This document shows positions 62,096 to 62,778 of a DNA stretch of 64,000 nucleotides, piece after piece. Source of the DNA: Escherichia coli (GTDB lineage: Bacteria; Pseudomonadota; Gammaproteobacteria; Enterobacterales; Enterobacteriaceae). The position numbers and the translations under genes were made by a program. The notes under the pieces were generated by a model. That model saw nothing but the letters and a program-made list of their open reading frames with translations, searched no databases and was not told the origin of the DNA. The stretch is taken from assembly GCF_022846255.1 (NCBI RefSeq), contig NZ_AP025682.1; one strand, written 5' to 3'. Numbering within the stretch: position 1 is the first letter of the stretch; the number at the start of each line of letters is the position of its first letter.

Positions 62096-62778
62096 GCTTC
62101 CTCCTGCAACTGCCCGTTCACCAGCCGTAAGCAGCGGTCACAGCGTGCCGCCAGTTGCAGGTCGTGGGTCACCATAATCAACGTGGTGCCATGTTCACGG
62201 TTGAGGGAAAACAGCAGGTCGGCAATTTTATCGCCCGTCTGGCGGTCAAGGTTGCCGGTGGGTTCGTCGGCAAACAGCACATCAGGCCGACCGTTAAAGG
62301 CACGCGCCAGCGCCACTCGTTGCTGTTCGCCGCCGGAAAGCTGTGCCGGAAGATGATCAAGACGTTTACCCAGCCCTAACTGTTCGAGCAACGCTTTCGC
62401 CCCGTTACGACTTTCTGCGCTACTCTCACCACGCAGCAGCGCCGGAAGCTCGACGTTTTCCAGCGCGTTAAGGGTAGGAATTAACATAAATGACTGAAAA
62501 ACAAAGCCTACGTGCTTCGCGCGCAACTTTGCCCGCGCTTCTTCGTCCATATTATGTAGCGGTTGTCCCACCAGATTTACTTCGCCACTGCTGCCGTCAT
62601 CCAGTCCGGCGAGGATCGCCAGCAACGTTGACTTACCCGATCCCGACTCGCCCACCAGCGCGATGGTCTCGCCACGTTTGACAACCAGCTCAACTCCGGT
62701 GAGGATGGAGAGTTCATGCTCCCCCTGACCGACGGACTTCTTAAGATGATGAACTTCAACAATGTTTTCCGCTGGCAT
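62092..62778 (-). CDS. ybbA: ABC transporter ATP-binding protein YbbA
   Basis: 228 aa with Walker A GESGSGKST and signature LSGGEQQR. Confidence 0.95.
   Translation of the reverse strand: MPAENIVEVHHLKKSVGQGEHELSILTGVELVVKRGETIALVGESGSGKSTLLAILAGLDDGSSGEVNLVGQPLHNMDEEARAKLRAKHVGFVFQSFMLIPTLNALENVELPALLRGESSAESRNGAKALLEQLGLGKRLDHLPAQLSGGEQQRVALARAFNGRPDVLFADEPTGNLDRQTGDKIADLLFSLNREHGTTLIMVTHDLQLAARCDRCLRLVNGQLQEEA

Follow-up and report, generated by a model that had tools for sequence, protein, structure and literature searches.

Head-to-head overlap of the tesA and ybbA coding sequences in Escherichia coli and other Enterobacterales

Do two genes that run in opposite directions really share the codons with which both begin, or does such an overlap betray a misplaced start codon? 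The question is raised by tesA and ybbA in a 64,000-nt stretch of Escherichia coli DNA (the window, in whose coordinates positions are given below), for which a preliminary description had proposed that the first 11 codons of tesA (from 62746, forward strand) and of ybbA (from 62778, reverse strand) lie on top of each other. Divergent overlaps make up ∼1% of well-characterised prokaryotic gene overlaps, all those longer than 60 bp that Palleja et al. examined were 5′ misannotations (Palleja et al., 2008; PMC2478687), and their rarity has been ascribed in the literature to the density of initiation signals.

The overlap itself can be read directly from the sequence. According to the ORF list and to the K-12 and PGAP annotation, ybbA (62092..62778, − strand) encodes the 228-aa ABC transporter ATPase of the YbbAP-TesA complex from ATG 62778-62776, while the ORF list and annotation give tesA (62746..63372, + strand) as the gene for the precursor of periplasmic thioesterase I/lysophospholipase L1, with 208 aa from ATG 62746 or 207 aa from ATG 62749. 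The 5′ coding ends overlap head-to-head on both strands at 62746-62778, that is, over 33 nt or 11 codons of each gene, which shrink to 30 nt (10 codons) when tesA is taken to start at the second ATG, 62749. The + strand of this stretch reads ATG ATG AAC TTC AAC AAT GTT TTC CGC TGG CAT (TesA MMNFNNVFRWH) and its reverse complement ATG CCA GCG GAA AAC ATT GTT GAA GTT CAT CAT (YbbA MPAENIVEVHH), in an exact codon-for-codon antisense register in which codon position 1 faces position 3 and position 2 faces position 2. TesA Met1-Met2 (ATG-ATG) is complementary to YbbA His11-His10 (CAT-CAT), and YbbA Met1 to TesA His11 (CAT). The complete tesA ORF (62716-63372, + strand), that of an SGNH hydrolase, holds three in-frame ATGs, at 62716, 62746 and 62749, of which 62716 is merely the first ATG of the longest ORF (218 aa). 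Same-strand overlaps flank the pair: the start of ybbP (59681..62095, − strand; 804 aa, permease of the same transporter as YbbA, from the ORF list and annotation) and the stop of ybbA share 4 nt (62092-62095), and tesA and ybbO, which runs past the window end, share 11 nt (63362-63372).

The K-12 RefSeq record shows the same 33-nt overlap (tesA 519139..519765(−), ybbA 519733..520419(+)), so that the proposed sharing of the first 11 codons stands, and the PGAP annotation of strain ATCC 11775 places tesA one codon later, giving a 30-nt overlap. DNA identity to K-12 is 98.3%, with zero differences at 62660-62879, and the region is present in 5418 of 5426 complete genomes; compared with E. albertii, the TesA protein is ∼99.5% identical but the DNA only 93%, which marks the window as E. 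coli. Both frames encode real, expressed proteins, as YbbA and TesA match solved structures, including that of their joint complex (PDB 9GE8), and have thousands of homologues. YbbA is 99-100% identical to the YbbA of PDB 9GE6/7/8 over residues 1-228 (one substitution), and the TesA sequence is that of E. coli TesA from the mature N-terminus ADTLLILGDS onwards, the solved mature chains beginning at residue 37 of the 218-aa ORF; since the signal peptide is cleaved, the solved and purified protein is silent on the initiator codon. The arrangement had been called unusual, and it is indeed rare in kind, but it is already known, being annotated in K-12 RefSeq, listed in an excludon catalogue and noted in the YbbAP-TesA structure paper (PMC12646458), which describes a single complex and takes the neighbouring position and partly overlapping operons of the genes as an argument that the proteins interact. 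That work concerns protein structure and function; start codons, dual-coding constraint and promoters lie outside its analysis.

If ybbA were to start downstream of 62778, the overlap would be smaller or absent, as the preliminary description had pointed out, but the reading frame offers no such escape. Reading in frame from a TAA nine codons ahead of ATG 62778 up to the codon immediately preceding the Walker A glycine, one meets no other ATG, GTG or TTG. Solved ABC ATPases (LolD, the MacB nucleotide-binding domain, MJ0796 and BceA) align with YbbA from residue 6-10 onwards, which indicates that the ATPase domain needs these codons, and none of 21 sequences departs from this ATG, not even those in which residues 2-5 differ (MVTGS in Photorhabdus). 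Directly ahead of it, 3-7 nt upstream, the − strand carries a Shine-Dalgarno-like AGGAAGGG (62782..62789, direct reading), which is encoded by the complement of the P-F-L codons in the hydrophobic core of the TesA signal peptide; other Enterobacterales loci also retain a motif of the AGGA/GGAG type in the same place. We therefore regard initiation further downstream, or at a non-canonical codon such as the ATT of Ile6, as extremely unlikely. The room for it comes from the experimental record, since no YbbA N-terminus appears in the N-terminomics, INRI-seq or Ribo-RET tables and since the cryo-EM construct of YbbA was tagged upstream of Met1, so that the structure is no evidence on the native start; yet even a start at Ile6 would still overlap tesA by 15-18 nt. 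As for these tables, the TRAINSPOTTER N-terminomics supplements contain neither YbbA nor TesA and give no evidence either way, and the zero peaks for tesA (b0494) and ybbA (b0495) in INRI-seq Table S2 (PMC9825163; five in-vitro replicates) and in the tabulated Ribo-RET data should be taken as uninformative, not as negative results. The synthetic INRI-seq templates of the two genes are partly complementary, which, speculatively, might suppress the signal. The ybbA start thus appears, from its sequence context, to lie inside tesA.

Conservation of the arrangement was followed in 80 loci, one genome per species, in which both genes were located by tblastn; start candidates were measured from two fixed anchors, the GDS motif of TesA and the Walker A motif of YbbA, and, for the sorting by spacing, the start was taken as far downstream as a plausible signal peptide allowed. 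A 30-33-nt overlap was found in 19 Enterobacterales species, the sampled genera including Citrobacter, Kluyvera, Pseudocitrobacter, Superficieibacter, Mangrovibacter, Klebsiella, Serratia, Rahnella, Acerihabitans, Photorhabdus and Providencia. We then compared the mean pairwise diversity at third codon positions in 9-codon windows of 19 non-redundant Enterobacterales sequences. In ybbA codons 2-10 it dropped to 0.146, compared with 0.534 in the rest of the gene (0 of 201 windows were as low), and in tesA codons 3-11 to 0.170, compared with 0.530 (0 of 184 windows), although phylogenetic relatedness among the sequences means that these window counts are no formal probabilities. The two start codons mark the limits of the drop, with the third positions of either gene relaxing from codon 12. 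Individual codons tell the same story: YbbA Glu4 and Glu8 are GAA and never GAG (the complement, TTC, encodes TesA Phe), Glu4 being replaced by Gly in two Photorhabdus species, and residue 3 of YbbA, an Ala in 19 of 21 sequences, is always encoded by GCG (complement CGC, TesA Arg9). The N-region of a signal peptide is normally a variable segment, whereas that of TesA, MNFNNVFRWH, is nearly invariant, which we attribute to the dual-coding constraint. As a control, Vibrio-type loci, in which the genes overlap by 2 nt, showed mildly lower diversity in ybbA codons 2-10 (0.52 vs 0.65); a general start-proximal effect is therefore real and could account for part of the synonymous constraint, but it is far too small to explain the enteric pattern. 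Suppressed synonymous change within the overlap points to purifying selection on both frames, and with a geometry kept in 19 Enterobacterales species and third-position diversity at its lowest in both genes, the overlap is, as judged from these alignments, more than chance.

The same comparison bears on the start of tesA. The equivalent of ATG 62749 is present in all 19 Enterobacterales species except Photorhabdus, which keeps the equivalent of 62746. In Superficieibacter and Mangrovibacter a natural variant with YbbA His11 changed to Arg (CGT) pairs with a change of TesA Met1 to Thr (ACG), and the second tesA ATG stays. As the His11-to-Arg cases keep the second ATG and Photorhabdus keeps the first, at least one CAT/ATG pair is always retained. 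Among the candidate starts of tesA, only ATG 62746/62749 gives a canonical signal-peptide N-region; the Shine-Dalgarno sequence is weak (GACGGA, 9 nt upstream) and is not kept in Serratia-like species. This pattern suggests that tesA starts at the conserved second ATG (62749, 30-nt overlap), the first (62746) being optional, and hence inside ybbA, with an ATG that is conserved and covaries with YbbA His10/His11 while the alternatives are not conserved.

One of these alternatives would abolish the overlap altogether. Were TesA (197 aa) to start from the TTG of Leu12 (62779..62781, + strand), the two genes would abut exactly and the shared codons would be a 5′ annotation artefact, as most long divergent overlaps in databases are (PMC2478687); some gene callers do output TesA products of 197 and 194 aa, and the codon is TTG or GTG in E. 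coli and in many Enterobacteriaceae. Against this, the TTG is absent in Citrobacter werkmanii and C. youngae (both TGG) as well as in Serratia, Rahnella, Acerihabitans, Photorhabdus and Providencia, and in seven of the species TGG, CTT, CTC, TTT or TTA takes its place; it has no Shine-Dalgarno sequence ahead, and it would leave TesA with a signal peptide of 15 residues that lacks a charged or basic N-region. Nor would it explain why the third positions of ybbA codons 2-10 are frozen and why a CAT/ATG pair is constantly retained. We consider a start at TTG 62779 highly unlikely. A search for a conserved downstream start that removes the overlap thus came up empty for both genes, ybbA having none and the one in tesA being neither conserved nor followed by an intact signal peptide.

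If no intergenic DNA separates the two genes, every expression signal has to sit within the partner gene, and the proposal that both promoters lie inside the partner's coding sequence is borne out by published transcription starts. SMRT-Cappable-seq (Yan et al., 2018, Supplementary Data 2, NC_000913.3; PMC6131387) gives four starts at the locus, which we transferred to the window through sequence identical to that of K-12: (i) tesA-ybbO-cnoX at K-12 519797(−), window 62714(+), inside ybbA; (ii) ybbO-cnoX at 519327(−), window 63184(+); (iii) ybbA at 519387(+), window 63124(−), inside tesA; and (iv) ybbA-ybbP at 519163(+), window 63348(−), also inside tesA. The mapping was checked by means of a perfect TATAAT (63172-63177), which stands 6 nt upstream of 63184. 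These start sites all come from one dataset, the supplements of Cappable-seq (PMC4782308) and of Adams et al. (PMC7815308) having no rows for the region. The ybbA start at 63124(−) and the ybbO-cnoX start at 63184(+) lie back to back, 60 bp apart, as an intragenic bidirectional promoter pair within tesA.

A putative tesA promoter can be assigned to 62678..62706 (+ strand), inside ybbA codons 24-34, with a −35 hexamer TTGACA (62678-62683), a 17-nt spacer and a −10 hexamer GAGGAT (62701-62706) located 7 nt upstream of the published start. Agreement with the consensus extends to 9 of 12 positions, the −35 being perfect and the −10 matching in 3 of 6. A default sigma-70 promoter scan of 62300-63300 found nothing; the promoter was missed because so little of its −10 fits the consensus, and was found after the published start had been mapped. 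Of 20 Enterobacterales sequences, 17 (the window and 16 distinct species) carry this −35 hexamer unchanged, synonymous sites of ybbA included. The hexamer is the complement of GTT-GTC-AAA (ybbA codons 32-34), and across 21 Enterobacterales sequences codons 32 and 33 show no third-position variation, compared with an average diversity near 0.5, indicating that a promoter element constrains synonymous sites of the partner gene. From the mapped start to ATG 62746, tesA has a 5′ leader of 32 nt (62714..62745, + strand) that lies wholly inside ybbA codons 12-22. The ybbA(P) leader (62779..63348, − strand) measures 346 nt from 63124 and 570 nt from 63348 and is antisense to almost all of tesA. An Rfam search of 61500-64000 (E ≤ 1) gave no match, and the two translation start regions, when folded, had z-scores between +0.4 and +0.8, that is, no special structure.

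The position of the tesA transcription start also bears on a longer overlap, in which TesA would be made, at least partly, from the upstream in-frame ATG at 62716..62718 (+ strand; 218 aa, 63-nt overlap), possibly on a near-leaderless mRNA. No stop intervenes before 62746, a strong GGAG (62707-62710) lies 5 nt upstream of this ATG, some databases hold TesA products of 218-220 aa, and the mapped start is just 2 nt upstream, so that the mRNA would be leaderless if the mapping were off by a few nucleotides. With transcription starting at 62714, however, the GGAG falls outside the mRNA, which argues against the 218-aa TesA as the main product. Moreover, 6 of 19 species, among them Citrobacter sp. 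FP75 (L003), L006, Rahnella bruchi (L018) and L019, have no start codon here; the third positions of ybbA codons 12-21 are relaxed (∼0.37) and so carry no dual-coding signature; and a 63-nt overlap would belong to the size class, above 60 bp, in which all examined divergent overlaps proved to be misannotations (PMC2478687). We thus judge a contribution of 62716 to be improbable: it is probably not the main start of tesA, although it may yield a minor, near-leaderless product. Public gene calls of enteric TesA (homologues P0001-P0120) differ at the N-terminus, with lengths of 194, 197, 204, 207, 208, 218 and 220 aa, and some bear long fused extensions upstream (286-402 aa); the head-to-head overlap is evidently treated inconsistently by automatic callers.

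Beyond the Enterobacterales, divergent tesA-ybbA(P) adjacency was seen in essentially all 80 loci, which come from Gammaproteobacteria and one betaproteobacterium. In 18 non-enteric species from several orders, among them members of Vibrio, Photobacterium, Salinivibrio, Psychromonas, Moritella, Rheinheimera, Marinobacterium and Dokdonella, the two genes overlap start to start by 2 nt within the palindrome CATG, in which CAT stands for the ybbA ATG on the opposite strand and ATG for the start of tesA, leaving no intergenic DNA (L028, Vibrio hepatarius, at 2516-2517; likewise L023, L024, L026, L030, L032, L033, L035, L036, L041-L043, L046, L049, L061, L062, L069 and L079). Compared with this abutment, the same gene pair in E. 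coli shares 30-33 nt, and in a different phase. We know of no named family for the CATG start/start arrangement. Eight further species have a gap of 0 to 3 nt, and the rest gaps of 7-113 nt, with one at 445 nt. The gap of about 10 nt in Pseudomonas loci fits the signal peptide of P. aeruginosa TesA, for which a length of 21 residues has been reported. From this distribution, the 2-nt CATG overlap is likely to be the ancestral state of the enteric one.

A longer overlap occurs in Pectobacterium zantedeschiae and P. betavasculorum (L015, L016; 2501-2578), where the shared stretch has received a 48-nt insertion through which both frames stay open. With the usual ATG gone, ybbA is left with a single canonical start, 15 codons further upstream, and the two genes share at least 51 nt (78 nt if counted from one ATG to the other). 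This exceeds any divergent overlap that was accepted as real in the 2008 survey (PMC2478687).

Taken together, our results lead us to favour, with considerable confidence, a genuine and conserved head-to-head coding overlap of two functionally linked genes, with ybbA starting from 62778 and tesA from 62749 and/or 62746. On this account, the shared stretch would specify the first beta-strand region of the YbbA ATPase on one strand and the N-region of the TesA signal peptide on the other, and an old zero-spacer divergent pairing of tesA with ybbAP across Gammaproteobacteria would have lengthened to 30-33 nt in an ancestor of the Enterobacterales. Akin to other divergent (5′-5′) overlapping genes (Palleja et al., 2008, PMC2478687; Lillo and Krakauer, 2007, PMC2174442), tesA and ybbA share their 5′ coding ends, in phase 123:321. 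They differ from most divergent overlaps in databases in that no start is misannotated, the overlap is shorter than 60 bp and conserved order-wide, and the products are partners of one complex. In this last respect the locus is one of the Type VII ABC transporter loci with a dedicated periplasmic partner, YbbAP-TesA being comparable to FtsEX-EnvC, LolCDE-LolA and MacAB-TolC.

Complementarity between the mRNAs of tesA and ybbA(P) extends from 62714 to 63124 or 63348, some 410-635 nt, and takes in the translation start regions of both genes. Together with promoters that face each other, this complementarity leads one to expect transcriptional interference and RNA duplex formation, and expression of tesA-ybbO-cnoX and of ybbAP probably interferes mutually, in an excludon-like manner. 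ExcludonFinder (PMC12288877) counts tesA-ybbA as one of 16 divergent excludons that recur in half or more of 58 MG1655 RNA-seq samples, and on this published evidence the locus resembles divergent excludons, with overlapping transcripts and a long ybbAP leader antisense to tesA. Classical excludons overlap in untranslated regions and usually join genes of opposing function, whereas tesA-ybbA overlaps in the coding sequence as well and its products cooperate. Rather unlikely, and offered here as a tentative idea, is the further step that the overlapping zero-spacer layout is a selected control device rather than a frozen accident, one that sets the TesA/YbbAP ratio or the reciprocal timing of the two units. 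The 5′ end of the tesA mRNA would then pair with the ybbA start region, and the 346-570-nt ybbAP leader with the whole tesA message.

The tesA/ybbA overlap reveals no new kind of element; what is added here is its order-wide conservation, the His/Met covariation, the placement of the promoter, the CATG arrangement as probable ancestral state and the synonymous-site evidence by which the tesA start is fixed. Verified head-to-head coding overlaps are rare in bacteria, most database cases being start-codon errors, and the locus is a useful reference for gene callers, whose TesA lengths now range from 194 to 220 aa. For genome recoding, it means that any synonymous edit in 62746-62778 alters the partner protein, and for refactoring, that changes to ybbA codons 12-34 reach into the promoter and leader of tesA. 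The locus also lends itself as a simple test bed for asking whether an antisense overlap tunes the stoichiometry of a complex. If the layout does act as a control device, the near-zero spacing across Gammaproteobacteria and the 48-nt insertion in Pectobacterium would reflect selection on the coupling of tesA and ybbAP.
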